Source: an uncultured bacterium
GTDB lineage: Bacteria; Patescibacteriota; Minisyncoccia; Phycocordibacterales; UBA6065
Reading direction: 5' to 3'
DNA length: 64,000 nt
Assembly (NCBI GenBank): GCA_963841935.1
Contig: CAWJEP010000001.1
Span: 10,487 to 74,486, forward strand
Of this stretch, positions 2,084 to 50,957 are shown one piece after another (the stretch's first letter is position 1; each line of letters opens with the position of its first letter). The notes beneath the pieces were generated by a model. The model had not been told where the DNA came from and searched no databases. It worked only from the letters and a program-made list of their open reading frames with translations. Made by a program: the position numbers and the translations under genes.

Positions 2084-2130
2084 CAAAAACCGGGGCTTTT
2101 CGGAAATTTCCGAAAAGCCCCGGTTTTTTA
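2084..2130. terminator. bidirectional rho-independent terminator
   Basis: A 14-bp perfect stem (ccggggcttttcgg / ccgaaaagccccgg) has an aaattt loop and is flanked by an A-run and a T-run. On the minus strand it ends the rplB-containing operon. Confidence 0.7.
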
Positions 2131-5173: not shown

Positions 5174-5180
5174 TAGCACA

Positions 5181-5212
5181 AAAAACCGCCCTTGCGGGCG
5201 GTTTTTTGTTTA
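5181..5212. terminator. rho-independent terminator after rpsJ
   Basis: aaaaaaccgccc ttgc gggcggtttttt is a perfect hairpin with A/T runs on both sides. The rpsJ stop codon (5210-5212) abuts it. Confidence 0.65.
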
Positions 5213-6904: not shown

Positions 6905-6940
6905 GAAAGCCCCGCGGCACTTCGTGCCGCGGGGCTTTCA
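6905..6940. terminator. GC-rich hairpin (possible terminator for the small minus-strand ORF)
   Basis: A 12-bp perfect stem (gccccgcggcac / gtgccgcggggc) has a ttcg loop. It lies upstream of tuf and downstream of ORF 6956-7207 on the minus strand. Confidence 0.35.
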
Positions 6941-12715: not shown

Positions 12716-12799
12716 ATTTCCTTTTCTCTGTCATTTGCATGTCAAGGTCTGCCTATTGGCAGATTGTCCCGAGATGCGCGCCGATATGTTGATGTTACG

Positions 12800-12842
12800 G
12801 CGTTTTTCGGAAGCTCGCGCGAAGCACCCGAAAAACGCCGTA
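12800..12842. other. long hairpin upstream of gene 12170-12715
   Basis: ggcgtttttcgg ... ccgaaaaacgcc is a 12-bp perfect stem with a 17-nt loop. Confidence 0.4.
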
Positions 12843-15189: not shown

Positions 15190-15780
15190 ATGCAAAAATT
15201 CGAAGAAAAAAAATTCAATATTCCGGCTTTAAAAGGTATTTCGGCGAAAACAATCGAGGAACATTTGAAGCTTTATAGTGGTTATGTAGCGAACGCCAAT
15301 CTCGTTATGGAAAAAATCGCGACACTCGGCGCAGATCCGGCGAATGCGTACGCCGTGAGCGAAATCCGCAGACGTTTCAGTTTTGAATTCAACGGTATGC
15401 GCAATCATGAAGTTTATTTTTCTTCTTTCGAGGGCGGAGCAAAACCTTTACCTGCCAATTCCCTTCTTAAACAAACGGTTGAAGCTGGGGGAGGAACACT
15501 TGAAGCTGGTATCGCTTATTTCAAATCACTAGCCCTCACTCGCGGTATCGGCTGGGCAATGCTTTGGTATGACCGCAAAGACAAAATGATACTTGCGTCA
15601 TGGGTCGACGAACAGCACCTCGGACAACTCCAAGATTGCACACCCATTCTCGCTCTCGACATGTGGGAACATTCGTTCGTCGCGGACTACCAACCCTCGG
15701 GAAAGAAAAGTTACGTTGAAGATTTTTTCGCCAATCTCAATTGGGAAGTGATCGAGAAGAATTTCCTAAACGCGCGATAA
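15190..15780 (+). CDS. Fe/Mn-family superoxide dismutase-like protein
   Basis: The C-terminal DMWEHSFV motif matches DxWEHAYY. NHEVYF matches NHxxFW. The EEH position corresponds to the N-terminal His ligand. Start chosen at MQKFEE. Confidence 0.6.
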   Translation: MQKFEEKKFNIPALKGISAKTIEEHLKLYSGYVANANLVMEKIATLGADPANAYAVSEIRRRFSFEFNGMRNHEVYFSSFEGGAKPLPANSLLKQTVEAGGGTLEAGIAYFKSLALTRGIGWAMLWYDRKDKMILASWVDEQHLGQLQDCTPILALDMWEHSFVADYQPSGKKSYVEDFFANLNWEVIEKNFLNAR

Positions 15781-17290
15781 AAAATATCATCGCGGCGTAG
15801 ACAATCACAACCGCCGAAAAAGGAAAAGGGATCGCGACTGACGAAAAAGGAATCGCCGAAAATATTTTGGCGACAAATAGCTCGTATGAAGTGAAAAAAT
15901 AAGCAACGACGGCGAACGGAAAGGAGAGAATCGGCGAAATTAGACCGATCACACCTGACAGAAGTCCGAAAAGCATGGTCATGGGCAGTACCGGCAAAAT
16001 TAAAATATTGGCCGGCACGGAAAAAAACGACAGCGAGCCGGTAATATACAAAATATAAGGCAAAACGGCGACTTGCGCCGACAAAGTCGATATAAAAATT
16101 TCCCTAAAACCGAATCTCTCGGGAATTTTCACTAACTTTTTTTCGAAAATGGGCGAAATAAATATAAGGCCGAGAACGGCGAGAATGGAAGCCTGAAAAG
16201 ACGAGTCGAAAATCAAAATCATTGGGTTCCAAAAGACCATCAGGAAAATCGTCAGTGCCAAAGCGCGCACGGCGTCGTGTTTTCTCGCCAAAGCTTTGGA
16301 TAAAAAAGCGAAAAGCGCCATGATGGAGGCGCGAACGACCATGGCCGACGCTCCGGTCATCAAAACAAAAAGAATAATTGAAACCGAAGCGAGAACAAGC
16401 GACGTCCGAAATCCAAATCTCGCAAAAAACCTTCTGACGGACTCGGCAACGATTGCGATGGCGTAGCCGGAGAGGATAACGATGTGAATCGTGCCAACTT
16501 TTCGAAGCATGTCTAGAATATCCTGCGGTACGGAATGTCTTTCTCCCAAAAGAATGGCGTTGACCAAAGATGCGTTCGGCTCATTTATCACGCGGTCAAC
16601 GCTATCGGCGAACGCGTGTTTTATCGAAAGAAGAAAGGATATCGCGGGATTGCCTTTGTTTGACGCGACCAAACTAATAACCGGTTGGTACATTACGGAG
16701 TAGATTCTGTCTTTTTGAAGATATGAAACATAATCGAAAACCTCACCTGTCGCGTCATCAGAAAAATTCCTCGGCGAAACCAATGGGCCGAGAACGGCGA
16801 GCTCGTCGCCGTAATTTCTTTTCGGAAAAAGTCCGGCTTCAATGAGAATATTATTTTCTCCGGAAAGTTTTTTGCCGTTTACCGACTCCACGCGAAAAGT
16901 AATAAGCTGTTTGTCTTGCCTGACATCCGGGTCTTGCGAAATGTAACCGGTGATTTCTATTTTGCCTCTCGCGCCGGAAAGAATCGGGTCCGGAGTTTTT
17001 GAATATGTCTCGTATCGCAAAGCGCCGAGAAAGAAAAATATCAATGAAAGAGAAACGAGCGCGGGAAGTGCGGCAGTTTTTCGCTTGTGCGCTTCGCTCC
17101 GACTTACGCGCTCAAAACTGCCGCACTTCCCGCGCTCTAAATTCGGTCTTCGTTCGAAAATACATACCGCCGCGATTGCCGAAGCTATTAATAATACAAA
17201 AACTAGCAGAAAAATATCGGCGTTCGTGAAAGTTTGAAACGCGATTCCCGCCGCGAAACCTATAACCGCTATATAAATGGCCGCCGCCAT
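15737..17290 (-). CDS. comEC: competence protein ComEC/Rec2 (DUF4131 plus competence domain, polytopic membrane)
   Basis: The 517-aa product has many TM helices with ComEC-core-like segments (...LSGYAIAIVAESVRRFFARFGF...). It carries an in-frame 81-bp palindromic element insertion in the TM2-TM3 loop. Confidence 0.8.
   Translation of the reverse strand: MAAAIYIAVIGFAAGIAFQTFTNADIFLLVFVLLIASAIAAVCIFERRPNLERGKCGSFERVSRSEAHKRKTAALPALVSLSLIFFFLGALRYETYSKTPDPILSGARGKIEITGYISQDPDVRQDKQLITFRVESVNGKKLSGENNILIEAGLFPKRNYGDELAVLGPLVSPRNFSDDATGEVFDYVSYLQKDRIYSVMYQPVISLVASNKGNPAISFLLSIKHAFADSVDRVINEPNASLVNAILLGERHSVPQDILDMLRKVGTIHIVILSGYAIAIVAESVRRFFARFGFRTSLVLASVSIILFVLMTGASAMVVRASIMALFAFLSKALARKHDAVRALALTIFLMVFWNPMILIFDSSFQASILAVLGLIFISPIFEKKLVKIPERFGFREIFISTLSAQVAVLPYILYITGSLSFFSVPANILILPVLPMTMLFGLLSGVIGLISPILSFPFAVVAYFFTSYELFVAKIFSAIPFSSVAIPFPFSAVVIVYAAMIFFIARLGNSSRSLPN
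17057..17137. repeat. RPE/MITE-like palindromic element, copy 1 (24-bp arms plus conserved 33-bp core), in frame inside comEC
   Basis: gagcgcgggaagtgcggcagtttt | TCGCTTGTGCGCTTCGCTCCGACTTACGCGCTC | aaaactgccgcacttcccgcgctc. It totals 81 bp, which is 27 codons. Confidence 0.8.
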
Positions 17291-17794: not shown

Positions 17795-19470
17795 ACAAGT
17801 TTCAAAATTCTAACACGGAGTTCCGTCCTGTTTCCAAATGTCGATTTTTCCAAATTGCCGACGAAAGTTATCTTGTCGCCCTCTTTTATTTTTCGGATTT
17901 CCTCGTCGGCGAAAAATTGTATGGCTTTTACCGTGCCGTTTCCCGCCTCTCCGGCAGTAGGGCCCTTTTTGAAAAGAACCTCAAAATGATTTTTTTCTTT
18001 GCCGAAAGTTTTCGCCGAAGAAATTGAGACCCCACGGAAAAGAAACGCCGGCTTTGGATTGCCCATACCGTACGGTGAGAGTTTTGAAAGCGCGGCATAT
18101 AAAGAAACCGAAACATCGTCGGCGGAAAGTTCCGCGTCGTATATATCCGCCGGAGAGGTTTTTTCGACCGGCGGCAAATTGCCGAGAGCGACTTCCAATT
18201 CTTTTTCCAAATTGAAAACGGCTTCATTTGAAATGCTGAATCCGCCGGAAAACGCGTGGCCGCCGAATTCCATAAACACTCCCGGGCGCGCGGCGCGCAT
18301 AAGTTCGATGAGATTTACTCCGCCACCCGAACGAGCGGAACCTTTTATCACATTGTCCCCGTCCCTGCCCCAAAGAAAAACCGGGCAGGAAAATTCTCCG
18401 GCGAAAGTGTTCGCGGCAAGCCCCAAAAGCGACGGTCGCCAATTTGGATTGCCTAAAACGATGATTCTTCTCGAGGTCGCGTCCCTTTCGCCTACGATTT
18501 TTTTGATTTCTTTGACTAGAGCGGCAACGGTACCTTTGCGTTCATTGTTCACGTGTTCAAGTCGCGCGGCGAGTTTTTCAATCTCATCGCCCTCCTTCGC
18601 GGATAACAGATTGAAGGCGTCGAGAGGCGTGCCCATACGCGAGGCGGCGTTGATTCTCGGGGTAATGGAAAATCCTATGTCGTCTTCGCTTAAATTTTTC
18701 TTTTCCAAGCGCAAAACATTTATCAAGGCACCGAGTCCCGGTCTCTGGGTTTTTCTCATAACCACAAGCCCGTAGTGGGCGAAAACCCTGTTCTCGCCGA
18801 CAAGGGGCACCATATCGGAAAGAGTGGCTATGCCGACCATGTCGAGGAGCCATTTTTCCCAGCCGACGGGAACATTGAATTCCTCGCCGTGTTTTTTTAT
18901 AAACGCTTGCACAACTTTGAAAAAAATCGCCGAGCCGCATAGATTTTTTTCCGGATACGCGCACCCATCCTGTTTGGTATCGATGACGGCAAAAGCTCCG
19001 CTCAATTTTCCGTGAGTTTCGTGGTGGTCGGTAATAATGACGTCAATATTTTTGGACTTGGCGTAGGAAATTTCTTTGGCATCGGCAATGCCGCAGTCAA
19101 TGGTGAGCAAAACTTTCGCTCCGCGCTCGGCTATTTCGTCTATGGCGCCCTCATTTAGGCCGAAACCTTCATCGTGGCGATGCGGAATGTATATTTCAAA
19201 ATTTTTATGGCCGACTTTTTCCAAAAAATCCTTTGCTATGACCGCGCCTGGAATGCCGTCGGCGTCGTAATCGGAAAAAATCGCGATTCGCTCGCCTCCT
19301 TTCACCGCGCGATACAACCTCTCTATTGTTTTTTCCATCCCTTTCAAAAGAAAAGGGTCGTGGGTGTGAAGTTCGTAATCCGGATTTAAGAATTTTTCCC
19401 TTTCTTCGCGCGTTTTTATTCCTCTTTTTTCGAGAAGTAAATCAACGAGACCCTGCACGTCAGTTGCCAT
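17791..19470 (-). CDS. recJ: single-stranded-DNA-specific exonuclease RecJ
   Basis: The 559-aa product has DHH motifs (DYDADGI, ITDHH) plus DHHA1. Confidence 0.9.
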   Translation of the reverse strand: MATDVQGLVDLLLEKRGIKTREEREKFLNPDYELHTHDPFLLKGMEKTIERLYRAVKGGERIAIFSDYDADGIPGAVIAKDFLEKVGHKNFEIYIPHRHDEGFGLNEGAIDEIAERGAKVLLTIDCGIADAKEISYAKSKNIDVIITDHHETHGKLSGAFAVIDTKQDGCAYPEKNLCGSAIFFKVVQAFIKKHGEEFNVPVGWEKWLLDMVGIATLSDMVPLVGENRVFAHYGLVVMRKTQRPGLGALINVLRLEKKNLSEDDIGFSITPRINAASRMGTPLDAFNLLSAKEGDEIEKLAARLEHVNNERKGTVAALVKEIKKIVGERDATSRRIIVLGNPNWRPSLLGLAANTFAGEFSCPVFLWGRDGDNVIKGSARSGGGVNLIELMRAARPGVFMEFGGHAFSGGFSISNEAVFNLEKELEVALGNLPPVEKTSPADIYDAELSADDVSVSLYAALSKLSPYGMGNPKPAFLFRGVSISSAKTFGKEKNHFEVLFKKGPTAGEAGNGTVKAIQFFADEEIRKIKEGDKITFVGNLEKSTFGNRTELRVRILKLV

Positions 19471-22247: not shown

Positions 22248-22986
22248 TTGCCAGTTTGATTATCTCGGCGAAACGCTTGGGGTCGAGAGATTGGCGACCG
22301 ACCAAAAGTCCGTTTATGCCGCCCTTCAAAAGCATTTCTTTGGCATTTGCGGCGTCGACCGAGCCTCCGTAAAGCACCGGAATTCTCATTGCTTTTTCCT
22401 TCGGCAAAAATTGCGCGCAGGTTTTCTTTATGAAAATCGCCATGGCCCGCATCTCCTCCGGAGACAAAGCCTTGTCATAACTGCCCCCGACGGCCCAGAC
22501 TGGCTCATAAGCTACGATGAATTTTGGAATTTTATTTTTCGCCACAGCTTTCATGACCACGGAAAGTTCTCTGGCTATATCGGAAAAATAATCTCCATCT
22601 TGATCGCGTTTTTTTTCGCCGACGCAGAGGATAGGCACGAGTTTGGCTTCAAGGGCGCGGACGAATTTCTCGGCGACAACCTCGTCCGTGTCGCCCGCGG
22701 CTCTTCGCTCGCTGTGACCGACGATGGCGAAATCCGCGCCCGCGGATTTCGCCATTTTCGCGCTCACTTCTCCAGTGTGCGCGCCGGAAAGATGGACGGA
22801 GACGTCTTGGGCCGCGAAAAAAAGCGAACTTTTTTTCGCGGCCAGTATTGGCAAGAAAACTGCGGGCGGAGCAATGATGACTTTTGCGCCGCGCGCGCGG
22901 GCTACCGCGCGCGCGGCGCCCGTCGCTATCTCTTTCGCCTCTGAAAGCGTCATCGGATTCATTTTCCAATTACCAATGATAAACAT
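22240..22986 (-). CDS. tpiA: triosephosphate isomerase
   Basis: The motifs are GNWKMN, IVGHSERR and YEPVWAVG. Confidence 0.95.
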   Translation of the reverse strand: MFIIGNWKMNPMTLSEAKEIATGAARAVARARGAKVIIAPPAVFLPILAAKKSSLFFAAQDVSVHLSGAHTGEVSAKMAKSAGADFAIVGHSERRAAGDTDEVVAEKFVRALEAKLVPILCVGEKKRDQDGDYFSDIARELSVVMKAVAKNKIPKFIVAYEPVWAVGGSYDKALSPEEMRAMAIFIKKTCAQFLPKEKAMRIPVLYGGSVDAANAKEMLLKGGINGLLVGRQSLDPKRFAEIIKLANA

Positions 22987-28323: not shown

Positions 28324-29721
28324 TTAATATGTGACCACGAAATTATTCACCGGAAAGGCTTCCACGGTATGAATTCCTCCGGCCAAAATCAGGAGTTCGC
28401 TCTCGACATCGACGATTCTCGGTATGCATATAAAATAATCAAAGGTCACGGCGTAATAATTCCATCCGTTTTTCTGTCCGAATAAATGGATGTCGGAAAT
28501 GTTCGCGAGACTGTGTGTCGCGGCCGGCTTCACGAGTGGCTCCTTGGAAACGACAAAAAGAGTGCTCGTGGCATTCACGCGCCAATTGTCACACACAACA
28601 TTGTCAAAAGATATCGGGAAACGATTTGTCGGGTCGCCGGTTTCTTTCGCTATATTTCCTATGGTCACGGGACTTGTCGTGGCGATGTCATAGAAATACA
28701 AATCCCCGATTTTTTCCAAAAATCTCCCCGGCGCGGACGCGTCATAAGTTCCAAGATAAACATTTTGATAAGCTATGGACGTCGTGTCGTAAGAAATGTC
28801 TCCTTCCGTTGAAACAAATACCGGGACTAAAAAACAAATACCCAAAAGCAAAACGGCGGTGGCGCCGAAGACGCGAAAGCGCGAGGCGCCTCTTTCCGCG
28901 AGAAAAAACCATCCGAAATACACGAGTTCCATGCCAAAAACATGTTCAAGATACACCGATACTTGAGTGTGACTTATGGCGCCGAAGGGATAGGCGATAA
29001 TAACGGCGATGGGCGTGACTAGAGAAAGAGCAACGGGGAAAATCCAGCCGCGGAAACTTTTAGGTGCGTAGCCGTAGCACATAACGAGCAGGATGAGAAA
29101 AGCCGGAATAGCTTCGGAGTTCAAAAGTCCTCCGTCGAAAATATTTTTCAAAAAAGAAAGCAGAGCGATGGCGAAAAGTATCTGGAGGCCGAATCTTTTT
29201 TTATTTTTCCCGACAAAATCGAACAGGAGCCATATTCCAAGGATAGACACGGTAAGACATCCGGCAAGTCCGACCCAGCCGACCCATGTCGGCAAAATAT
29301 TGAGGTACGCGAAACCAAAATCGGCTTTTGTCTCGAGCGCGAGCCGAAGCTGGGTCGGAAAAAAAGATGAAACCAGACCGAAAGGAAATTTCAAAACATG
29401 AGTGTGAAAGAAATGCGTCGTAGAAATATCCCTTTCCCCTATCGCTGACAGAACATAGTTCGCCGGAACGGCGAGCATTTTATAAAAGTAGAAAGTTACG
29501 CCAAGACCGAGAAGGAAAATCGCCGTCGAAACGATGAAAAATATATTTTTCAGGGGAAATTTCCGCGCGACAGGCGTTTCGACGGCGATTTTTTTTCGCC
29601 ACGCGATGATATTTACGACAGCCAAAAGCAGAATGGCGAAAAGAAAGAGAAAAACTTTCACGTCACTGCGACCCGCGGCGAAAAGGTCGGTAATAATGTG
29701 CAGAAAGAAGAAATAATTCAT
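28324..29721 (-). CDS. large polytopic membrane protein with a C-terminal extracytoplasmic domain (hypothetical; GT-C glycosyltransferase-like or sorting-enzyme-like)
   Basis: The 465-aa product has 10 or more TM helices followed by a soluble tail of about 150 aa. It is tightly coupled to the flanking genes. Confidence 0.55.
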   Translation of the reverse strand: MNYFFFLHIITDLFAAGRSDVKVFLFLFAILLLAVVNIIAWRKKIAVETPVARKFPLKNIFFIVSTAIFLLGLGVTFYFYKMLAVPANYVLSAIGERDISTTHFFHTHVLKFPFGLVSSFFPTQLRLALETKADFGFAYLNILPTWVGWVGLAGCLTVSILGIWLLFDFVGKNKKRFGLQILFAIALLSFLKNIFDGGLLNSEAIPAFLILLVMCYGYAPKSFRGWIFPVALSLVTPIAVIIAYPFGAISHTQVSVYLEHVFGMELVYFGWFFLAERGASRFRVFGATAVLLLGICFLVPVFVSTEGDISYDTTSIAYQNVYLGTYDASAPGRFLEKIGDLYFYDIATTSPVTIGNIAKETGDPTNRFPISFDNVVCDNWRVNATSTLFVVSKEPLVKPAATHSLANISDIHLFGQKNGWNYYAVTFDYFICIPRIVDVESELLILAGGIHTVEAFPVNNFVVTY

Positions 29722-35865: not shown

Positions 35866-37850
35866 ATGAATTCATACATTATTTTCGCCCTCGGAAGCGC
35901 GGTGCTCGCGATTGTTTACGGACTCGTATTGATAAAAAATATTTTGGCGAAGCCCGCTGGCAACGACAAGATGAAAGAAATCGCCCTCGCCATTCAGCAA
36001 GGCGCCAAAGCGTATCTCGCGAGGCAATACAAAACTATCGCTGGAATCGCCGTCGTTCTCTTTATCGTTTTGTGGCTCGCGCTCGGACTTACGCTCGCTT
36101 TAGGATTCCTTACCGGCGCGATACTTTCCGCTCTTGCCGGATTTATCGGTATGAATGTTTCCGTTCGCGCCAATTCTCGAACGGCTGAAGCCGCGAGAGG
36201 CGGTATTGACGCCGCGCTCAAACTGGCTTTTAACGGCGGCGCGGTCACGGGACTTCTCGTCGTCGGTCTCGCCCTTCTCGGCGTCACTTCTTTCTACGCG
36301 ATTACCGGCGGCGTTGATTCGCTCATCGGGCTCGCCTTCGGAGCGTCGCTTATTTCCGTTTTCGCCCGCCTTGGCGGAGGTATTTTTACAAAAGCAGCCG
36401 ACGTTGGCACCGACCTCGTCGGTAAAGTCGAAGCTGGAATCCCCGAGGATGACCCGAGAAACCCCGGAGTCATCGCCGACAACGTCGGAGACAACGTCGG
36501 AGACTGCGCCGGCATGGCCGCCGACCTTTTTGAAACTTACGCCGTCACGACTATCGCCTCGATGATGCTCGCGTCAGTGATATTTCCGGGAAATCAAAAC
36601 GCCGTCATATATCCTCTCGTCCTCGGCGGTGTGGCGATAATCGCTTCCATCATCGGCACTTGGTTCGTACATATGGGCAAATCAAAAAATATTATGGGTG
36701 CGATGTACAAAGGCCTCGCCGTTGCCGGAGTTCTCGCCGGAATCGCTTTCTACTTCGTGACGAAAGTTTTGATGGCGGCAAACGGACAATTTTCCACTGG
36801 CAATCTTTTTGGTTGCGCCGTCATCGGACTTCTCGTTACCGCGGCACTTGTCGTCATCACCGAATATTACACTTCAACCAAATACGCTCCGGTTAAATCC
36901 ATCGCCAAAGCGTCGGTCTCCGGTCACGGCACGAATATTATTCAAGGTTTGGCCATGTCGATGAAATCAACCGCTTGGCCGCTCATTAGCATCGTCGTCG
37001 GAATTCTCTTCGCTTATCACTTCGGAGGCCTTTACGGCATCGCTATCGCCGCGATGAGTATGCTTTCGATGGCCGGAATCATTATCGCCATTGACGCTTA
37101 CGACCCATCACCGACAACGCCGGTGGCATCGCAGAAATGGCCGACCTTCCGCAAGAAGTCCGCGATGTTACCGACCCGCTTGACGCCGTCGGCAACACGA
37201 CCAAAGCCGTTACCAAAGGTTATGCCATCGGCTCCGCCGGACTCGCGGCTCTCGTTCTCTTCGCTTCTTACACTCAAGCTACTCACGGACTTCATTTCGA
37301 GCTCGGTGACCCGCGTGTCATCGTTGGACTCTTTCTCGGAGGACTTCTTCCTTATTACTTCGCGGCGCTTTCGATGGAAGCCGTCGGCAAAGCAGCGGGA
37401 CAAGTCGTCGAAGAAGTGCGAAGGCAATTCCGTGAAATCAAAGGCATTATGCAAGGCACGGCCAAGCCAGATTACGCTCGTTGCGTCGACATCGTGACTT
37501 CGGCGGCAATCAAAGAAATGATTCTGCCGGCACTCATTCCTGTTCTCGCTCCGATTGTCGTCGGTTTCGTCCTCGGACCGGTTGCTCTCGGCGGACTTCT
37601 CGTCGGCTCGATTGTCACCGGACTTTTCGTTGCCATCTCGATGACTTCCGGCGGCGGCGCTTGGGACAACGCGAAAAAACTTATTGAACAAGGCGAGCAC
37701 GGCGGTAAAGGCAGCGACGCTCACAAAGCGGCAGTCACCGGCGACACCGTCGGCGATCCTTACAAAGACACCGCCGGTCCCGCCATCAATCCGATGATTA
37801 AAATCCTGAACATTGTGGCGCTTCTTATCGTCAGCTTCTTAATCAAATAG
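35866..37850 (+). CDS. hppA: membrane-bound proton-translocating pyrophosphatase (H+-PPase); apparent -1 frameshift near 37101-37104
   Basis: The motifs are [38 protein letters not shown] and then [21 protein letters not shown] in the downstream frame. Frame 1 reads ...[12 protein letters not shown], whereas the expected [22 protein letters not shown] is restored by inserting one G at tacg|accc. Confidence 0.9.
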
Positions 37851-38132: not shown

Positions 38133-38141
38133 GACAAAAAA

Positions 38142-38214
38142 GCCGCTAGTAAGATATTTTTTCGCTTGTGCGCTTCGCTCCGACTTACGCGCTCAAAAAT
38201 ATCTTACTAGCGGC
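38142..38214. repeat. RPE/MITE-like palindromic element, copy 2 (intergenic, doubles as a terminator)
   Basis: gccgctagtaagatatttt | ttcgcttgtgcgcttcgctccgacttacgcgctc | aaaatatcttactagcggc is followed by tttttg. It is flanked by A5 and T5 runs. Confidence 0.8.
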
Positions 38215-38258
38215 TTTTTGTTTGCCTAAACGGAAATCCTAAGATAAAGTGTTTTTCT

Positions 38259-39284
38259 ATGTCACACAATCATTCATACAAAGTCTCGGTAAAAAAGCTT
38301 CCAAAAAGCCAGCTCGAAATCGAGTCTGAAATTCCCGCGGACGAGTTTTCAGCCCATATCAAAGACGCCGTTGACGAAGCGGTGCGCGAAGCGGAAATAA
38401 AAGGCTTTCGCAAAGGCGCCGCGCCGGAGAAACTCGTCCGCGAGAAAATCGGCGATGACGCGCTTCTTCACGAAGCCGCGAGTGCCGCCATCTCTCACGC
38501 CTACGGCCACATCGTCGAAGCGGAAAAAATAGACGCCATCGGCAGACCGCAAGTGACCATCACGAAAATCGCCGAAGGCAATCCTTTGGGATTTAAATTC
38601 GTCACCGCCGTGGTGCCGGAAATAAAAGATTTCGATTACAAAGAAATCGCCAAAAAAGAAAATAAAAAAGAAAAATCCAAATCGGAAGTTACCGAAAAAG
38701 AATTTGCCGAGACACTTGAAAATGTTTTGAAAAATTATCAGCCGAAGCGACAAAATTGGAAAAAGCTCCGGAACTTTCGGACGAGCTCGTGAAAAAATTC
38801 GGCGAATTTTCTTCGGCCGACGATTTCAAAAAGAAACTTCGCGAACAAATGCTTGCGGAAAAAGAACAAAAGGAAGTGGAGAAAAAACGCGTAGCTCTTA
38901 TAGATGCTTTGGTCTCCGGAGTCTCCATAGAAATTCCGGAAATACTTGGTGCAAAGCGAGCTTGACAGGATGCTTTCGGAAATGAAAAACGACGTTTCAC
39001 GGATGGGACTTTCGTGGACTGACTATCTGAAACACTTGAAGAAAACCGAGGATGATATGAAAAAAGATTGGAACGAAGCCGCGAAAAAGAGAGTGATGCT
39101 CGAACTCATCACCGAACACATAGCCAAGACGGAAAAAATTTCCGCCGACGAGAAAAAAGTTTCGGAGGAAGTAAAACACATTCAAGAACACCACAAAGAC
39201 ATAGACGCCGCGCGCGCCCGTTCGTATTTTGAACACATTTTCCAAAACCAAGCGGTCTTCGAATTTCTAGAGGGACAAAAGTAA
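38259..39284 (+). CDS. tig: trigger factor (short form without a PPIase domain); two apparent frameshifts (about 38740-38756 and about 38948)
   Basis: The N-terminal ribosome-binding domain has GFRKGAAPEKLVREKIG. The middle segment ...KAPELSDELVKKFGEF... and the C-terminal ...VQSELDRMLSEMK... lie in three different frames. The joins sit at an A-run and a GG-run. Confidence 0.75.
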
Positions 39285-40052
39285 AGCTGCTGCCGCAACC
39301 GACGCCGTTTCGGCGCGCAGAGTTTGCTCGCCGAGCGACACAGACGGAATTCTGCGCGCCGAAAAATATTCTTTTTCTTCTTTGCTCCATCCGCCTTCGG
39401 GGCCGATGAAAATAGAAATGGCGCGCAAAACATTTTGCGCCGAGGGAACTTCCGCGCGAGAGTTTTTCTCGCTTGTGCGCTTCGCTCCGACTACGCGCTC
39501 CAAAAACTCTCGCGCGGAAGTTCCCGAGTGGCCTCCAGAAAAATGTTTTGCGCTTCCTTCTAGAACCACAGGATTTTCTGCCTGCTCTAGCGCTAGTTCC
39601 AATTTTTCTGGCTCAAAAATTTCCGGCACTCTTCCCCACCCCGATTGCTCCGCGGCTTCTTTTACTATTTTTTCCTCGCGTTTCAAATCAAAACCGAGTT
39701 TCTCACTTCGCTCCGCGACGATTGGATGAAAACTTGCCGCGCCGAGCTCGGTGGCTTTTTGCAAAACCCATTCAAGTTTGTCTTTTTTTATAAGCGCCGG
39801 ATAGATGTGCAAAGCGACGCTCGGCGCGGCGATCGACGGCGAGCTTTCTTCCACGTGAAAGACGGCGCCGTCCTTCCTAAGAGACGCGAGTGTGGAAACA
39901 TATTCAAATCCGTCCCCGTCGAAAAGTATCACCCGCTCCCCCGCTCCCATCCTGAAAACTTTTCCGAGCTGGTGCGACAGGGCCGGATCGGCGACGACGA
40001 GGTCGGCGCCGACTTTGGCTTTGTTTCTGACGAAAAATCTTTGCAGTTTCAT
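39267..40052 (-). CDS. rsmE: 16S rRNA (uracil1498-N3)-methyltransferase RsmE
   Basis: The N-terminal PUA-like domain plus a SPOUT domain with IGPEGGWS. An in-frame palindromic element lies just upstream of the GPEGG motif. Confidence 0.75.
39444..39525. repeat. RPE/MITE-like palindromic element, copy 3 (24-bp perfect arms), in frame inside rsmE
   Basis: gggaacttccgcgcgagagttttt | ctcgcttgtgcgcttcgctccgac-tacgcgctcc | aaaaactctcgcgcggaagttccc. It encodes ...[32 protein letters not shown]..., lengthening the loop before IGPEGG by about 25 aa. Confidence 0.8.
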
Positions 40053-42665: not shown

Positions 42666-42674
42666 AACAAATAA

Positions 42675-42747
42675 GCCGCAGATAAGGTATTTTCGAGAGC
42701 GTAAGTCGGAGCGAAGCGCACAAACGAGAAAATATCTTATCTGCGGC
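42675..42747. repeat. RPE/MITE-like palindromic element, copy 4 (reverse orientation; terminator for hup)
   Basis: gccgcagataaggtatttt | cgagagcgtaagtcggagcgaagcgcacaaacgag | aaaatatcttatctgcggc is followed by ttttt. The core is the reverse complement of TTGTGCGCTTCGCTCCGACTTACGC. Confidence 0.8.
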
Positions 42748-42768
42748 TTTTTGTTACAATAATTGCCT

Positions 42769-43443
42769 ATGACCGACTGCCACACATTGGTAATGAGCGA
42801 TCTGCATCTCGGCTCGCGCGTCTGCCGCAGAGACAAAATCCTCGGCGTTCTAAAAAATAGCCGCCTCCACACCCTCGTTATAAACGGCGACCTCTTCGAC
42901 AGCAACGACATAGAGAAATTGACCGACAAAGACTGGGAAATCCTCGAAACCCTGCGCAAAATAGCTCAAAAAAACACCGTCCTCCTCGTTGGCGGCAATC
43001 ACGGCAGAAAGCTCGACTTATTCGCGGAGGATTTCGGCGTGAAAATAGTGGATGAATACGCTTTCACGCTCGGCAAAAACAGATTTCTCTGTCTTCACGG
43101 CGACGAATTCGACCTTTTCGTCAAACACTTCCCTATGACTAGCAATATGTTCGGCAAATTATATTATTTGATACAAAAATTGAGCCGGAAAAAGCAAAAA
43201 GGTCCCGTGATGGTGAAAATGATTATGAAGAAAGTCTTGCGCGTGCCGCGCAGACAGGAGCGCCTGGCGCTCAAGCGAGGAGCAAGCGACGGCGCGGATG
43301 TTGTCATCTGCTCGCATACGCATATTCCTCATATGGAAACCAAAAACGGCATTCTCTTCATCAACTCCGGCTCTTTCTGCGACAATCCGAGCAACTATGT
43401 GGCAATTAGTCCGACTGGTGAGACGGAACTTGTGGGGGTTTAA
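42769..43443 (+). CDS. calcineurin-like metallophosphoesterase (LpxH/YfcE-like)
   Basis: The motifs are SDLHLG, NGDLFD, GGNHG, LHGDE and SHTHIPH. Confidence 0.8.
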   Translation: MTDCHTLVMSDLHLGSRVCRRDKILGVLKNSRLHTLVINGDLFDSNDIEKLTDKDWEILETLRKIAQKNTVLLVGGNHGRKLDLFAEDFGVKIVDEYAFTLGKNRFLCLHGDEFDLFVKHFPMTSNMFGKLYYLIQKLSRKKQKGPVMVKMIMKKVLRVPRRQERLALKRGASDGADVVICSHTHIPHMETKNGILFINSGSFCDNPSNYVAISPTGETELVGV

Positions 43444-43446
43444 AAT

Positions 43447-43815
43447 CTACTTAATTTTCTTCTTTTGTGCGCTTGGTATGTGTTTATCAAGTGGCTCGTG
43501 AATTTCACGCACTATCTCGCTGGTATTATTATCTTTCACAACCTCATCGTATCGGTTGTTTTCTTTATCTATAACACGATCTACCGTTACTCCATCCGGG
43601 TGTTTAATTAAATCCCCACTAATTTTCCAACCTGTATAAACTCTTTTCAAAAAATCTTTAATGCCAGGACGTTTATGCGTCATACTAATTGAATGTAACC
43701 TAGTCTTATAGACTCCTACTGAAACATTCATTACAAAACGATTACCCGTGTCTTTTTTACAAGATTCACAGTATGAGTTTTCTTTTTCTTTGTTACACAC
43801 AGAACAATATCTCAT
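43447..43815 (-). CDS. hypothetical protein with N-terminal zinc-ribbon (AT-rich island)
   Basis: CSVCNKEKENSYCESC. It is markedly AT-rich relative to its flanks. Confidence 0.4.
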   Translation of the reverse strand: MRYCSVCNKEKENSYCESCKKDTGNRFVMNVSVGVYKTRLHSISMTHKRPGIKDFLKRVYTGWKISGDLIKHPDGVTVDRVIDKENNRYDEVVKDNNTSEIVREIHEPLDKHIPSAQKKKIK

Positions 43816-43827
43816 AATATCTTGCTG

Positions 43828-44295
43828 TTATTCTAGACCTGTCTGATTACAAATTTCTTTCTTTAATTTATAAACTGTCTCTAGCATCAAATCTGTATCG
43901 AACCGATCCATTTGTACAGCAGTCTCACCAAAACGAGTATCAAGAGTGTTTTCATACTCCCTGATAAGCTCAAACAGTCTTTTATTCTGTGCTATTTCGG
44001 CAAATACCGAAATCTTGTTTTCATAGAATGAAATTATCTTAGTGACACTATGACCTAATCCTTCTTTTTTTGCGTCAAATTTTAAATTTTTATGTGCAGC
44101 AAGAGATTTTGTAAAAAGTTCCATGGAAAAATACAAGGCGTGTGGATAGACCCAAAAAGAAATAAGTCTCGACCCTTTCTTTTCTCTTTCATCTTTCAAA
44201 ATTAAAAAAGTTTGAAGCCATTCTGTACCGACATGAAAAAACATCGACCACTTTGGTGGAAAAGTATCGTTAAATTTCGGAAATTTTGTTGGCAT
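43828..44295 (-). CDS. hypothetical protein (AT-rich island)
   Basis: The 155-aa product has no family. Confidence 0.4.
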   Translation of the reverse strand: MPTKFPKFNDTFPPKWSMFFHVGTEWLQTFLILKDEREKKGSRLISFWVYPHALYFSMELFTKSLAAHKNLKFDAKKEGLGHSVTKIISFYENKISVFAEIAQNKRLFELIREYENTLDTRFGETAVQMDRFDTDLMLETVYKLKKEICNQTGLE

Positions 44296-44298
44296 ATC

Positions 44299-44631
44299 TT
44301 ATGATAAAACCAAAACTACTATTAGTCCGAAAATAAAAACTCCGATGGCTGTCCATATTCCCCAGTACAAGGCTATAAGACTGAGTATGATAACGATTAC
44401 CCATTTACCTATTTTCAAGAAACTTCTCTTCTTATATTCTGTAACTAATTTTTTTATATTTTGTTCCGCTTCTCGTTCAATTTTATCCGTAACTTCAATC
44501 TGATTTTTTACGTAATCTTCAGTCTCACCTTCGCGACCCTGTTTCTTCAACATCTCAACTGTCCCTTTCATTAGATTATAACCAGCACGCGCCATATCAT
44601 TTTTATAATTGCGTTCAGGTATATTATTCAT
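44299..44631 (-). CDS. hypothetical membrane protein (AT-rich island)
   Basis: A charged N-terminal half and two C-terminal TM helices. Confidence 0.4.
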   Translation of the reverse strand: MNNIPERNYKNDMARAGYNLMKGTVEMLKKQGREGETEDYVKNQIEVTDKIEREAEQNIKKLVTEYKKRSFLKIGKWVIVIILSLIALYWGIWTAIGVFIFGLIVVLVLS

Positions 44632-44654
44632 AATTTCTATTATTGAACTAAAAC

Positions 44655-45230
44655 CTATTTCTTCCCATGCTCAAACAAATCCCCTGGTTGCCATGGAGTG
44701 CCGCACGCGGGGAGAAGCCAATAATCGACGCCGAGGTAGCCAGCGACGCGCCAGGCGAGGATGAGACCGATAGCCAGAGTGAAAAGTATCGGATTGACGC
44801 TTACCGTACCGGCGAGGAGATAGTTGAGATTCATAAAGAGTCCGAAGAATGCCGCGATGCCGGTAAAAGCGCCGATGATGAGAGCGATGCCGACGAGGAG
44901 TTCGCCGTAGGAGACGACGTACGACCAGACGACCGGATGCGTCAGTATTGTTGATTTGAGAAAAAGTGCATACCAACTCTGTACGTCGGGATGATCCCCT
45001 GCCGCTTTGCCGAGTGCACCGTTTACAAATCCCGTGAGCGCCGTGCCTGCCGCACTTCCCGTCCACGCGACGCTTGTGACTTTTTCCCACGCCGCAGTCA
45101 CCCACTGATAGCCGACATAGAGCCTGACGACAAGCCAGAACCAAGAAAGTTTCGTGTTCGCAAAAAGTGCCATTACCGCCGGAGCTTCATTATATGTTCT
45201 GTGTTTCATATCGAAATTATACACCTGCAT
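44655..45230 (-). CDS. DoxX-like integral membrane protein (tentative)
   Basis: Four TM helices; WFWLVVRLYVGYQW resembles the DoxX N-terminal helix. Confidence 0.35.
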   Translation of the reverse strand: MQVYNFDMKHRTYNEAPAVMALFANTKLSWFWLVVRLYVGYQWVTAAWEKVTSVAWTGSAAGTALTGFVNGALGKAAGDHPDVQSWYALFLKSTILTHPVVWSYVVSYGELLVGIALIIGAFTGIAAFFGLFMNLNYLLAGTVSVNPILFTLAIGLILAWRVAGYLGVDYWLLPACGTPWQPGDLFEHGKK

Positions 45231-45442
45231 ATCTTTCGAGCGAATAATTTATAAAGGAGTACACTTACCATATGATAAAAGGAAATTTCATCGGCGCGGC
45301 AATCGTCGCGATAATTTATACGGTCTATATTTTGTGGAATCCCCTTCCGTCAAAATCGCAAATGGTAATAACTTTGGTGGTTCTCAACGCCCTGACCATC
45401 GTCCTGATGGCTTTCGCTTTCAGACCGTAACCTATCAAAATG

Positions 45443-45460
45443 ATGCGGGATGGGAGAATC
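45443..45460. repeat. 18-bp direct repeat of the tRNA-Gly(TCC) 3' end (att-like scar)
   Basis: tgcgggatgggagaatcg is identical to 45600-45617. Confidence 0.6.
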
Positions 45461-45599
45461 GGTCGTTACACGACCAGTATCCCAATTGGATTTTTTATTC
45501 GTGAACATTCTAAAAAATCTCAATCGGGCTTCGATATCTCCCACGGAAGCATAATATGCTTCCTATCCTCGCAAAATATATTCGCTGCGCTCGTTATTT

Positions 45600-45670
45600 T
45601 GCGGGATGGGAGAATCGAACTCCCGACCACAGTTTGGAAAACTGTTGTTATACCATTTAACTAATCCCGC
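45600..45670 (-). tRNA. tRNA-Gly (anticodon UCC)
   Basis: The minus-strand sequence is GCGGGATTAGTTAAATGGTATAACAACAGTTTTCCAAACTGTGGTCGGGAGTTCGATTCTCCCATCCCGCA. It has a 7-bp acceptor stem, a GGGAG/CTCCC T-stem and a TTCGATT T-loop. No encoded CCA. Confidence 0.85.
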
Positions 45671-45737
45671 CTACGCTATCGCTTCGGCGGGCAGGCCCGC
45701 TTGAGCAAAAACACTTTACCACAAGACATCAAAAATC

Positions 45738-46054
45738 TCACTCGCTCTCCCCTTTTGAGAGCCGCACGACTTCGTCGAAATCGTCTTCGGCGGATAATTT
45801 ATTTTTTTTCTCGAATCCGCATTTCACGCACTGCTGAATTATGGAAAAATCCCCTTTCGTTTTGATTACCGAGATCGGTTTCATCATTCCTCCGCACTTT
45901 TCCGCCCGATCACCAGGATTTTTGTCGACATGTTTCGACCAGAGGCAATGCGGACAATGATTTGTGTAACCATTACCGACGACTTCCCTTCCGCAATTCT
46001 CGCAGACGAAATTTTCGACCGTTTTTTGGAATTTTTTCGTGTCCTTTAGCATTT
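45738..46054 (-). CDS. RNHCP-domain zinc-ribbon protein
   Basis: CENCGREVVGNGYTNHCPHC...CVKCG. The start is trimmed to MLKDT because the longer ORF overlaps tRNA-Pro. Confidence 0.55.
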
Positions 46055-46055
46055 T

Positions 46056-46126
46056 TCGGGGCGCCGGGAATCGAACCCGGGCCGCATGATCCCAAATCAT
46101 GAATACTACCTCTATACTACGCCCCG
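46056..46126 (-). tRNA. tRNA-Pro (anticodon UGG)
   Basis: The minus-strand sequence is CGGGGCGTAGTATAGAGGTAGTATTCATGATTTGGGATCATGCGGCCCGGGTTCGATTCCCGGCGCCCCGA. The anticodon stem is CATGA/TCATG and the loop is TTTGGGA. Confidence 0.85.
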
Positions 46127-46177
46127 TGAAACATCATACTAGCACACTCGCCCCGCCGAAGCTTCCGCGGCGGCGGG

Positions 46178-46585
46178 CTACTCGGTAATATTTACTTTTT
46201 CTATCATTCTTACTCGGGCTTTTCTCGTATTTTGGTCTAGTTCAATGGCCAAAATGTTCCAAAAGAAATCCATATCCCGAAAATCAGGCCTTTGGGCGAA
46301 ATATATTTGCGTTACGCGCGAAAGCTTTTTCATTTTGGAGTAAGTCATATTTTCCTCCGGTCTAAAGGTTTCATGTGAAACCTGAATATCCGTTGTTTCA
46401 CGTGAAACACTTTTTACCTCAAAAAAGTGAATTTCATTGCCTTTTCTGGCGACAATATCGATTTCTCCGGCTTTTCTAGTGAAATTCCTTTCGATTACCG
46501 TGAAACCCTTATTTATCAAGTATTTACAGGCAATTTCCTCGCCGATTTCACCTATTTTCTGTGTTTCAGAGGTAAATACTTTCAT
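46178..46585 (-). CDS. YraN/UPF0102 family endonuclease
   Basis: IGEIGEEIACKYL..KGF.VIERNF..K.GEIDIVA.....HFFEVK. The start is at MKVF. The upstream TTG-initiated extension overlaps the palindrome cluster. Confidence 0.65.
   Translation of the reverse strand: MKVFTSETQKIGEIGEEIACKYLINKGFTVIERNFTRKAGEIDIVARKGNEIHFFEVKSVSRETTDIQVSHETFRPEENMTYSKMKKLSRVTQIYFAQRPDFRDMDFFWNILAIELDQNTRKARVRMIEKVNITE
46367..46411. promoter_or_regulatory. pair of GTTTCA-N2-TGAAAC palindromes inside yraN
   Basis: GGTTTCATGTGAAACC (46367-46382) and TGTTTCACGTGAAACA (46395-46410). Confidence 0.4.
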
Positions 46586-46591
46586 TTTGTA

Positions 46592-46622
46592 TGTTTCACG
46601 TGAAAAGTGTTTCAATTGAAAC
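46592..46622. promoter_or_regulatory. pair of GTTTCA-N2-TGAAAC palindromes immediately upstream of the yraN start
   Basis: TGTTTCACGTGAAAAG followed by the perfect GTTTCAATTGAAAC. Confidence 0.4.
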
Positions 46623-46756
46623 TATTTCTCTATATTTCTCCGTAATTATAGGACAAATGTCCTTGATAATGTGATGTCTTTTACACCTAATCCACAATGT
46701 TATCCACAGAAATATAAACAGACGGTGATTCGGAAAATCCGCCGATTTTCAGAGGG

Positions 46757-46827
46757 TGCGGGTAGGGAGAATCGAACTCCCACCTCATCCTTGGCAAGGA
46801 CGTGTCCTACCACTAAACGATACCCGC
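46757..46827 (-). tRNA. tRNA-Gly (anticodon GCC)
   Basis: The minus-strand sequence is GCGGGTATCGTTTAGTGGTAGGACACGTCCTTGCCAAGGATGAGGTGGGAGTTCGATTCTCCCTACCCGCA. Confidence 0.85.
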
Positions 46828-46875
46828 GTGAAAGCAATTCTAAACGAAATAACCAAAAACTCCAAATCCTATTTG

Positions 46876-46947
46876 TGCGCCCGGAGGGACTTGAACCCCC
46901 AATATCGGTTCCGAAGACCGGTGTGATATCCATTTCACTACGGGCGC
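46876..46947 (-). tRNA. tRNA-Arg (anticodon UCG as read; one C-A mismatch in the anticodon stem)
   Basis: The minus-strand sequence is GCGCCCGTAGTGAAATGGATATCACACCGGTCTTCGGAACCGATATTGGGGGTTCAAGTCCCTCCGGGCGCA. Confidence 0.75.
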
Positions 46948-47003
46948 GCAAGCTCATCATAATCCAAGCAAGCCGTTTCTCCAATGTTTCGCAGTGTCGA
47001 TAA

Positions 47004-48512: not shown

Positions 48513-48521
48513 GGAATTAGA

Positions 48522-48556
48522 AAACCGCTCAGCGGTTCGCGAGCGGTTTCTTCGTG
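48522..48556 (+). terminator. hairpin terminator after cca
   Basis: aaaccgctc agcggttcgc gagcggttt is followed by cttcgtg. Confidence 0.45.
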
Positions 48557-48804
48557 AGAAAACCCAGAGTGAGGCCGCGCCAAGCCTCCGAAGAGGTGGC
48601 CGCGATAAAAAAATTATGTGCCGCTTTGCAAGAGGCCGACTTGGCCTCTCTTCGAGGTTTTTCACGGTAAAAATGGGAGCTGAAACGAACAAATCGTGCC
48701 CTTGATTTCTAGAGGAAATCAATAAGACACCCGATAGAATCCTATGTCCTTTATAATCATTTGTAAAGGACATAATGTGGATAACCTGTTAAATGCTTGT
48801 AAAA

Positions 48805-49605
48805 TCAGGATATTTGGAGAAAAATAGGACAGTGGTCGGAACCGAAAACTCCGTCTAAAATCTTGGCGGATTTCACTTTCGAAACTAAATCGGAAGAAAC
48901 GAAAAAATAATCTATGCGCCAGCCGACATTTCTTTCGCGCGCGAAAGTTTTCATATCCCAGTACGTGTAAGCTTCTTTTTTATTCGGATTGAGTTGCCGA
49001 AATATGTCAACATAGCCTTTGGCGATAACTTTATCTATCCACGCGCGTTCGATGGGAAGAAATCCGGTGTTCTCTGCATTTTCTTTCGGCCGAGCCAGGT
49101 CGATCTCGGTGTGCGCGGTGTTTACATCTCCGCAAAAAATAATTCCATAGCCTTTTTTGCGAAGTTTTTCTATGTATTTCAAAAATTGATCGTAATATTC
49201 TAATTTGTATTTCAACCTGTCCGGTCCACCGCCTCCATTTGGAAAGTATGTGTTTATAAAAGCCAGTTTTTTGCCTGCCTCGCCGGCAGGCAGGCCTTTT
49301 TCTTCAAAAAGAAGGGTGATCTGTCTGCCTTCTTGGTCTAGTTTATGAACTCCAAAGCCGTATTCAACCTTCACCGGCTCTTTCTTGGTCCAAATGGCCA
49401 CACCACTGTAGCCTTTGCGCAGTTTCGAGTGGTCAAAATACGAAAAATATCCCGGCGGCCTTAAAACATTCTCTGGAAGCTGGTCGGGATGAGCTTTTGT
49501 CTCTTGGACGCAAAAAATATCGGCATTTTCCGATACAAGCCAGTCAAAACCGCCTTTGGTGATATTGGCTCTCAAGCCGTTGACGTTCCAAGAGATTATT
49601 TTCAC
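48805..49605 (-). CDS. xth: exodeoxyribonuclease III (AP endonuclease)
   Basis: The motifs are MKIISWNVNGLRA, CVQETK and SDHCPI. Confidence 0.9.
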   Translation of the reverse strand: MKIISWNVNGLRANITKGGFDWLVSENADIFCVQETKAHPDQLPENVLRPPGYFSYFDHSKLRKGYSGVAIWTKKEPVKVEYGFGVHKLDQEGRQITLLFEEKGLPAGEAGKKLAFINTYFPNGGGGPDRLKYKLEYYDQFLKYIEKLRKKGYGIIFCGDVNTAHTEIDLARPKENAENTGFLPIERAWIDKVIAKGYVDIFRQLNPNKKEAYTYWDMKTFARERNVGWRIDYFFVSSDLVSKVKSAKILDGVFGSDHCPIFLQIS

Positions 49606-50903: not shown

Positions 50904-50957
50904 GTCGCACAATATTATATCATACTTGCGTTTTTTAGTTATGTATGCTACGCTCAT

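Follow-up and report, generated by a model that had tools for sequence, protein, structure and literature searches.

A hairpin repeat family with a conserved loop and locus-specific stems in a lineage of Patescibacteria

Four copies of a hairpin-forming repeat occur in a 64,000-nt stretch of DNA from an uncultured patescibacterium (GenBank assembly GCA_963841935.1, contig CAWJEP010000001.1, positions 10,487 to 74,486; termed the window below), and we use the name family A for the hairpin element that they share. Family A is a real multi-copy hairpin repeat family, common to several genomes and present at dozens of unrelated loci. Its stem covaries, and its core is far more conserved than either the stem or the flanking sequences. 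We favour, with moderate confidence, the view that the element is a selfish hairpin module that behaves like the Rickettsia palindromic elements (RPEs), is maintained in perfect form by templated copying at the DNA level and is probably read as single-stranded DNA (ssDNA); the way in which it moves is something we infer.

The core in the window is TCGCTTGTGCGCTTCGCTCCGAC(T)TACGCGCTC, located between arms of 24-25 bp that are unlike from copy to copy. An exact 25-mer of this core is found at 17085-17109 and 38166-38190 on the + strand and at 42699-42723 on the - strand, compared with an expectation of 0 derived from 100 shuffles. The core of the remaining copy carries a 1-nt deletion (GACTACGC), which assigns it to a 32-nt core subtype, and was picked up by a shorter probe. 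The four copies are as follows.

17057-17137, core-sense + strand: copy 1; arms 17057-17080 and 17114-17137, core 17081-17113; 24-nt arms 100% paired, 33-nt loop, 96 bits.
38137-38219, core-sense + strand: copy 2; arms 38137-38161 and 38195-38219, core 38162-38194; 25-nt arms 100% paired, 33-nt loop, 94.7 bits.
39444-39525, core-sense + strand: copy 3; arms 39444-39467 and 39502-39525, loop 39468-39501; 24-nt arms 100% paired, 34-nt loop, 78.8 bits.
42670-42752, core-sense - strand: copy 4; arms 42670-42694 and 42728-42752, loop 42695-42727; 25-nt arms 92% paired (2 mismatches), 33-nt loop, 86.3 bits.

The arm pairs of these copies are the longest near-perfect inverted repeats of the window, and the copies have folding z-scores of -7 to -8.7 relative to shuffled sequences. 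When a covariance model built from the family was run unfiltered on the window, the four copies scored 79-96 bits and the next-best site 21 bits, and therefore the window contains exactly four copies. An original prediction, made from the letters of the window, had placed four copies with a shared core, once reverse-complemented, at these sites, and reading of the sequence, the 25-mer scan and the covariance model all bear this out. The same prediction took the arms to be always perfectly self-complementary and to end in TTTT and AAAA next to the core. The former is correct for copies 1-3 but not for copy 4, with its 2 mismatches in 25; the latter does not always hold in the wider family.

Copies elsewhere, which the original prediction had proposed to look for, were gathered with an exact 19-mer of the core in a scan of one genome per species and in a scan of metagenomes. 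The first scan gave 11 copies on 10 contigs, all in the metagenome-assembled genome (MAG) CAYZCB01 (loci L001-L012), plus two chance matches. The second yielded 63 loci in a small number of peat, fen and rhizosphere samples; with seven chance matches set aside, ~56 further copies remain. The total stands at ~60 distinct family A copies. No match to family A was obtained in a scan of viral contigs or by BLAST in phage or plasmid records. An Rfam scan of the window returned only tRNAs above the gathering threshold, and comparison of the element with Rfam at relaxed E-values gave nothing but matches below threshold, to generic hairpin models. The named homologs of the ComEC, RsmE and PolA proteins of the window belong to Paceibacteria or other Patescibacteria, and the host of family A is a Patescibacteria lineage related to Paceibacteria. 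MAG CAYZCB01 carries the NCBI label 'Candidatus Saccharibacteria', and its ComEC, RsmE and PolA are ~78-87% identical to those of the window; the label may be wrong at class level.

Complete elements are 64-98 bp long, of which ~45 nt form a conserved module composed of the asymmetric 32/33-nt core and a short inner stem (ATTTTN / N'AAAAT). The core is invariant or nearly so at 14 positions that lie outside the search probe. The 5-6 bp adjoining the core (ATTTT / AAAAT) are likewise conserved, and the remaining stem of 12-33 bp is unlike at every locus. Over putative orthologous pairs, identity is ~96% in the core, 75% in the arms and 70% in the flanks.

Pairing of the stems is nearly complete despite this divergence. 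Over 59 copies there are 25 mismatches in 1298 arm bp, and 38 of the 59 are perfect. When 42 copies are aligned without gaps, 94.0% of cells pair, compared with 56.3% in column shuffles and 42-52% when partners are slid, and cells changed on both sides number 326 versus 86 in shuffles. None of 500 shuffles reached the observed values. A hairpin-adapter or assembly artefact was considered and ruled out: the elements are located at orthologous, ORF-preserving (open reading frame) positions in independent short-read and long-read assemblies, and differ there by compensated changes.

Copies 1 and 3 reside within protein-coding genes, for which the relevant features are given here.

15737-17290, - strand: comEC, host gene of copy 1; ORF with PF13567 and PF03772, 100% identical to P0001.
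17138-17155, - strand: remnant of the 5' half of a second core family (family B); reads GAACGAAGACCGAATTTA (ERRPNL) in gene sense and lies immediately upstream of copy 1.
39267-40052, - strand: rsmE (16S rRNA U1498 methyltransferase), host gene of copy 3; ORF with PF04452 and PF20260, 100% identical to P0121.
39423-39436 (GCGCAAAACATTTT) and 39540-39553 (AAAATGTTTTGCGC), no strand assigned: outer 14-bp inverted repeat around copy 3, which makes the span 39423-39553 a nested hairpin.

The ORF of comEC bears out the claim that copy 1 occupies 81 nt, or 27 codons, in frame; these are ComEC residues 52-78, and the hydrophobic stretches on either side fit its proposed position in the loop between transmembrane segments TM2 and TM3. 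Among close ComEC orthologs, P0003 has the same palindromic insert, and P0005, P0009 and P0011 have short loops that lack it and hold little or no insert, which supports the view that the insertion is lineage-specific. An orthologous comEC copy (L010, 5168-5248) differs from copy 1 at two arm positions, both compensated. This loop holds core A in the window and in P0003; in P0002, P0004 and P0010 it holds core B, and in P0006 and P0007 an inverted core B. The comEC site is an insertion hotspot and not a simple one-off, with an older family B residing there in other lineages in both orientations. The remnant at 17138-17155 is homologous to GAACGAGGACCGAACCC, with which the B core opens in L016, L017 and L074. 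The comEC B hairpin of L016 and L017 has the native end of ComEC TM2 (AAVCIF) as its left arm and an inverted copy of that sequence as its right arm; the AAVCIF-coding sequence is also present in ComEC orthologs, there outside any repeat.

Only the comEC copy had been recognized as an in-frame insertion by the original prediction, which overlooked copy 3. This copy is in frame within rsmE and encodes RsmE residues 176-203, a segment that is missing from the orthologs P0125, P0128, P0130 and P0132. The nested span 39423-39553 corresponds to residues 167-210, where orthologs without the insert have a much shorter loop. An AlphaFold2 model of the window RsmE has a mean pLDDT (predicted local distance difference test score) of 82, with values <50 at residues 168-176 and 196-206. 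Means for 10-residue blocks over 161-210 are 70, 49, 65, 48 and 52, and most remaining blocks fall at 81-94. As in ComEC, RsmE and the PolA linker have inserts that differ by lineage, and these include diverged A cores, from which it follows that cores do decay.

A second inverted repeat in the window rsmE (39308-39364) is a perfect 14-bp pair (TTTCGGCGCGCAGA / TCTGCGCGCCGAAA) formed from synonymous codons of the conserved FSARR and LRAET peptides. Only 4-7 bp of this repeat are found in five orthologs with the same or nearly the same peptide, which suggests a quasipalindrome perfected by template switching. Hairpin elements also lie near the start of rsmE: the N-terminal extensions of the RsmE orthologs P0126, P0129 and P0131 in public gene calls are translated hairpin elements situated just upstream of the true start, as with the element at 3592-3670 of L054, and are an annotation artefact caused by the elements.

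Within the family as a whole, 18 of 60 copies are inside long open frames, although one of the 18 (L026) is doubtful. The hosts identified by Pfam are alanine racemase (alr), topoisomerase I (topA), glucose-6-phosphate dehydrogenase (zwf, G6PD), ParB, an RNB-domain RNase (RNase R-type) and a class I methyltransferase, to which DNA polymerase I (polA), ComEC and RsmE are added. In-frame copies thus occur in at least nine unrelated housekeeping genes. They are always in frame and stop-free and appear to be located in variable loops and linkers, such as the variable inter-domain linker that holds the PolA copies. Thirteen genic copies are antisense and five are sense. Frame and orientation combine in at least five ways when the core is read, so that the copies have no one peptide in common. 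Selection on an encoded peptide was accordingly ruled out, given that the core stands in several frames and orientations and is also found between genes. The GC content of the arms is 0.55 in genic and 0.34 in intergenic copies, and the 32-nt core subtype is overrepresented in genes, where it makes up 9 of 18 copies, versus 3 of 42 elsewhere. We attempted to derive insertion boundaries from length modulo 3, taking as the inserted unit either the whole hairpin or the loop plus one arm; neither rule suits all genic copies, because the repeat boundaries are uncertain by 1-2 nt. The RNB-domain RNase gene of L042 has one A copy near the N-terminus, at the contig edge, and a second, diverged copy inside the gene that encodes GTASLVRSADSAKTTRSSAPA.

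Comparison of orthologous sites reveals several kinds of change. The A core is flipped relative to well-conserved flanks in four pairs of sites (L002/L058, L035/L076, L041/window copy 2 and L057/L070). The terminator of the HU gene, where copy 4 resides, is found in three states: a plain 15-bp palindrome in L083, the same outer stem with a different 27-nt core in L082, and the same outer stem with TAAGATATTTTC and core A in the window. At the copy 2 site, L082 lacks a core and has a 9-nt loop on top of a long stem. In their inner arms, window copies 2 and 4 are closer to one another than either is to its CAYZCB01 ortholog (L009 and L005), and the reciprocal holds in CAYZCB01; the inner stem is thus characteristic of the genome, and the outer stem of the site. 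Elements are also nested. In L007 (polA), L023 and L036, a complete A hairpin lies between the 5' half and the 3' half of B, and an outer stem of 22-28 bp surrounds the whole.

The few imperfections in the stems are distributed unequally between the two strands. On the core-sense strand, 3 of 840 cells are G·U, compared with 18 on the opposite strand, and the 25 mismatches read on the core-sense strand include 17 of the A·C type versus 2 of the G·T type. The tolerated mismatches are thus G·T wobbles on the strand with loop GAGCGCGTAAGTCGGAGCGAAGCGCACAAGCGA (p ~0.001 by binomial arithmetic). This bias tracks the core and is independent of the direction of the neighbouring gene, and since sense and antisense copies are also near even, it argues against selection on host transcripts. 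The strand bias favours a hairpin of one DNA strand or a strand-specific mutation process. If the GAGCGCGTAAG... strand proved to be biased to the lagging-strand template, this would support an ssDNA hairpin mechanism, and the lack of such a bias would make it weaker.

According to the reading that we favour, the element would be propagated and recognized as an ssDNA hairpin, the relevant strand being the one with loop GAGCGCGTAAGTCGGAGCGAAGCGCACAAGCGA. A loop-recognizing factor would hold the core constant, and intrastrand template switching, in which one arm is copied from the other by fold-back, would generate the outer stems and keep them perfect. Template switching of this type would account for the near-exclusive Watson-Crick pairing, the compensated divergence of orthologs, the host-copied arms and the absence of target-site duplications, and it may also contribute to core flips, nesting and palindromes that grow into host sequence. 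The distribution of direct repeats flanking the hairpins equals that of a shuffled null, with no target-site duplications, and no conserved termini are seen among the copies. Modules might be inserted at the tips of hairpins; alternatively, the plain palindromes could be the remnants of deletions. Within genes, selection would retain only those insertions that add a tolerated, mostly hydrophilic disordered loop, and the hairpins at gene ends would probably double as terminators.

Several observations weigh against this proposal. No mobilizing enzyme was found: a Pfam scan of the 20 less obviously housekeeping ORFs of the window revealed a XerC/D-like tyrosine recombinase and an ExoIII-type nuclease, with no transposase and no Y1/HUH gene. 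Among the sites compared there is no filled and empty pair that is strictly isogenic, which makes arms that pre-exist and arms made on insertion both compatible with the data, and the plain palindromes at orthologous sites could be deletion remnants and not empty targets. The G·T bias could result from strand-specific mutation instead of selection on a single-stranded hairpin. The exact 19-mer probe inflates the apparent conservation of the core, and orthologs of RsmE and PolA do contain diverged cores. Finally, conservation is higher in copy 4 and its flanks than in the genes next to them, a pattern that fits a host function such as termination, or recent recombination, equally well.

A more specific proposal, which we advance only tentatively, is that the 33-nt loop is the recognition or cleavage site of a strand-specific ssDNA enzyme, and that the ~45-nt module either transposes into the tips of existing DNA hairpins or triggers inverted target duplication by fold-back synthesis. 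The conserved loop and the strand bias are consistent, by analogy, with a substrate for an ssDNA enzyme of the HUH/Y1 type. If true, this would be a form of bacterial transposition that proceeds without target-site duplication and in which the 'ends' of the element are made from host DNA. It could also help to explain why Paceibacteria-type genomes have the top palindrome densities among those reported.

An alternative that we judge unlikely is that the hairpin serves the host as a lineage-specific intrinsic terminator or as a signal for RNA stability or processing, its loop being bound by a host RNA-binding protein, and that the copies within genes are by-products. Of 43 non-genic copies, 31 are positioned no more than 70 nt downstream of the stop codon of an ORF of at least 80 aa, and eight of these 31 lie between convergent genes. 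Many copies have A-tract and T-tract flanks. In the window, copies 2 and 4 are flanked by terminator-like A and T tracts. Copy 2 is intergenic, 3' of the pyrophosphatase gene and a small ORF and 5' of the trigger-factor gene, and is terminator-like in appearance (AAAAAGCCGC...GCGGCTTTTT). Copy 4 is intergenic between the stop of the HU gene (42665) and the start of a metallophosphatase gene (42763). No other canonical terminator is predicted at either site. Copy 4 together with ~27-30 nt on each side is 100% identical to L054, in a region of 1.1 kb that is otherwise 86% identical, and the loop of the family is conserved as a binding site would be. Nevertheless, essential genes harbour 30% of the copies, in one orientation or the other, and an RNA duplex of 20-25 bp or a terminator would be harmful there. 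Copies that follow a gene end are oriented almost evenly with respect to transcription (22 sense and 17 antisense), and the G·U bias tracks the core and not the transcribed strand. The 33-nt loop, whose length keeps the elements from being called in a scan for consensus terminators, is unusual when compared with the 3-8 nt of intrinsic terminators, and the element has no match to an Rfam family.

The element might also lack any dedicated mobility, palindromes being freely produced in the lineage by template switching during replication and the shared core being spread and homogenized solely through copy choice between hairpins or ectopic gene conversion. This seems to us distinctly unlikely. 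Arms occur as inverted copies of native coding sequence, rsmE contains a palindrome built from synonymous codons, and the window has many long perfect palindromes, one of them without a spacer. Parcubacteria-type lineages have the highest inverted-repeat densities of any phyla (PMC13155455), the inner arms resemble each other more closely inside one genome than across orthologs (copies 2 and 4 versus L009 and L005), there are no target-site duplications, and no transposase was seen among the 20 window ORFs scanned. Gene conversion requires homology, however, yet the core is found at dozens of loci whose outer arms are unrelated. Conversion within a genome also leaves unexplained why the core is identical between genomes whose flanks are only 60-85% identical, and the core-linked strand bias speaks for a loop-reading factor.

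It is very improbable that family A is a classical MITE (miniature inverted-repeat transposable element), cut and pasted in trans by an insertion sequence (IS) transposase that recognizes terminal inverted repeats: it is small, non-coding, abundant and built on inverted repeats, but its outer termini are unlike in every copy and only the central 45 nt are conserved, the direct repeats that flank it match the null, and neither a transposase among the scanned window ORFs nor a viral, phage or plasmid match was found.

A DNA uptake signal, enriched by biased uptake and recombination in a lineage that keeps ComEC, is hardly credible: an identical short motif is indeed shared by related genomes in both orientations, in variable protein parts and in terminators, but its density of about one copy per 16 kb in the window is far below that generally known for uptake sequences, such signals arise by point substitution and bring no perfect inverted repeats of 20-25 bp, and the Neisseria uptake motif itself forms the stem, whereas the conserved motif of element A is the loop.

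The known system closest to the selfish module in behaviour is that of the RPEs (Ogata et al., 2000, as summarised in PMC10969869 and PMC3184786). Like family A, RPEs are short non-coding hairpin repeats that are inserted in frame in many unrelated housekeeping genes and also between genes, in a host with a reduced genome, and that add a peptide tolerated by the protein fold. Their mobilizing enzyme is likewise not known. RPEs differ in being ~105-150 bp long and conserved along their length, with a conserved peptide per family, whereas element A is 64-98 bp long, is conserved over its central ~45 nt and has locus-specific stems. Element A moreover uses both orientations and several frames, nests and flips, and its host is a patescibacterium. 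We set family A beside the RPEs by description and do not claim membership, because the size differs and the architecture is reversed (a conserved loop on a variable stem). The 'RPE/MITE-like' character given to the repeat by the original prediction therefore holds for the RPE parallel, which the in-frame copies in at least nine housekeeping genes extend, and fails for MITEs.

With MITEs and terminator-like repeats such as SPRITE of Streptococcus pneumoniae, Correia and ERIC, the element has in common that it is small, non-autonomous and hairpin-forming (PMC3184786). SPRITE resembles a Rho-independent terminator and is biased toward the 3' ends of genes (PMC3184786). Conserved terminal inverted repeats and target-site duplications, by which MITEs are defined, are both absent from element A.

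The selfish-module reading can also be compared with elements that are handled as ssDNA. REP and REPIN sequences, which depend on RAYT proteins related to the Y1 transposases of IS200/IS605, are recognized as hairpins of one DNA strand, cause no target-site duplication and are sometimes terminators. They have a conserved stem (with a GTAG motif) and a variable loop and are extragenic; element A is the reverse, with 30% of copies in genes, and the 20 window ORFs scanned included no RAYT gene. Origin hairpins cut by HUH enzymes, such as the nonanucleotide loops of geminiviruses and circoviruses and the origins of rolling-circle plasmids, present a conserved loop on a variable stem and are read on one strand, and the flip/flop terminal hairpins of parvoviruses carry an asymmetric tip in two inverted orientations. 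These hairpins serve as replication origins or as telomeres in autonomous replicons that carry a Rep gene, whereas element A is a dispersed chromosomal repeat, and the comparison concerns how they work and not membership.

Quasipalindrome or template-switch mutagenesis (PMC10710096) resembles what is proposed for the stems, in that the copying of one arm from the other creates an inverted repeat, or makes it perfect, in one event. It would explain the perfect stems, the compensated differences and the host-copied arms, but it is a mutational process and not an element, and by itself it leaves unexplained a conserved 33-nt core at dozens of loci. A survey of perfect inverted repeats, restricted to spacers of 0-8 bp, found their density to be highest of all phyla in Parcubacteria-type phyla (PMC13155455). 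Full-text literature searches aimed at such elements, only some of them directed at bacteria of the candidate phyla radiation (CPR), found no description of elements like family A in that group.

Palindromic selfish DNA inserted in frame has been described mainly in Rickettsia, and a large, active-looking superfamily in free-living or episymbiotic Patescibacteria shows that the phenomenon is not peculiar to that genus. The essential genes affected in these bacteria include those for DNA polymerase I, topoisomerase I, ParB, RsmE and ComEC. The reversed architecture offers sequence handles on a mechanism that is unsolved even for RPEs, namely the conserved loop, the covarying stems of apparent host derivation, nesting, flipping and the strand-specific wobble bias. 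For annotation, the elements inflate and distort the gene calls of CPR MAGs through false N-terminal extensions and lineage-specific 'inserts', and they may supply many of the terminators of these genomes.

Further core families (B, D, E and F) are carried on perfect stems at L005 6692-6774, L012 254-334, L035 1399-1475, L056 11953-12021, L065 4984-5086 and L082 1203-1275. Several of these cores have the centre GTCNGAGCGAAGCG or GCGAAGCG in common with core A, and the likeness of sequence points to a possible superfamily of related loop modules. In the window, a hairpin at 12796-12842 has a 17-nt loop with GCGCGAAGC, which resembles the GCGAAGCG centre of cores A, B and F, and another at 29511-29597 has a 41-nt loop. 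Both may be small or decayed relatives; the orthologous spacers of the hairpin at 12796-12842 do not align. Long perfect palindromes are also located at gene ends in the window (2085-2128, 6905-6939, 22810-22843 and 5178-5209), one of them a pair of 22-bp arms without a spacer. They could be empty targets or remnants of the element, and they fit the very high inverted-repeat density reported for Parcubacteria-type lineages. The recJ coding sequence contains an inverted repeat of 16-18 bp with a spacer of 66-87 nt, both in the window (17903-18021) and in L016 (569-670), where it is perfect.

Some neighbouring genes of the window appear as more than one ORF. The trigger factor that follows copy 2 is present as two ORFs (38259-38792 and 38946-39284), compared with a single 339-aa gene in L083, and a palindrome (38771-38800) lies at the break. 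The H+-pyrophosphatase gene is split into overlapping ORFs at 35866-37497 and 37137-37850; its ortholog in L082 is split too, at another place, and on the same long-read-style contig as L082 the gene for elongation factor G (EF-G) is in three pieces (seen in L015, 15951-18196). The H+-pyrophosphatase and EF-G splits are either frameshift errors of long-read assemblies or real pseudogenes. Further along the window, the stretch from ~43400 to 49600 has a low GC content (0.44), four tRNA genes (45600-46947) and several small ORFs without a Pfam match, and is followed by a gene for a 402-aa tyrosine recombinase of the XerC/D-like type (49983-51191) that contains an imperfect 49-nt inverted repeat (50701-50806). 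Together, the low-GC stretch and the recombinase gene may represent an integrated element.

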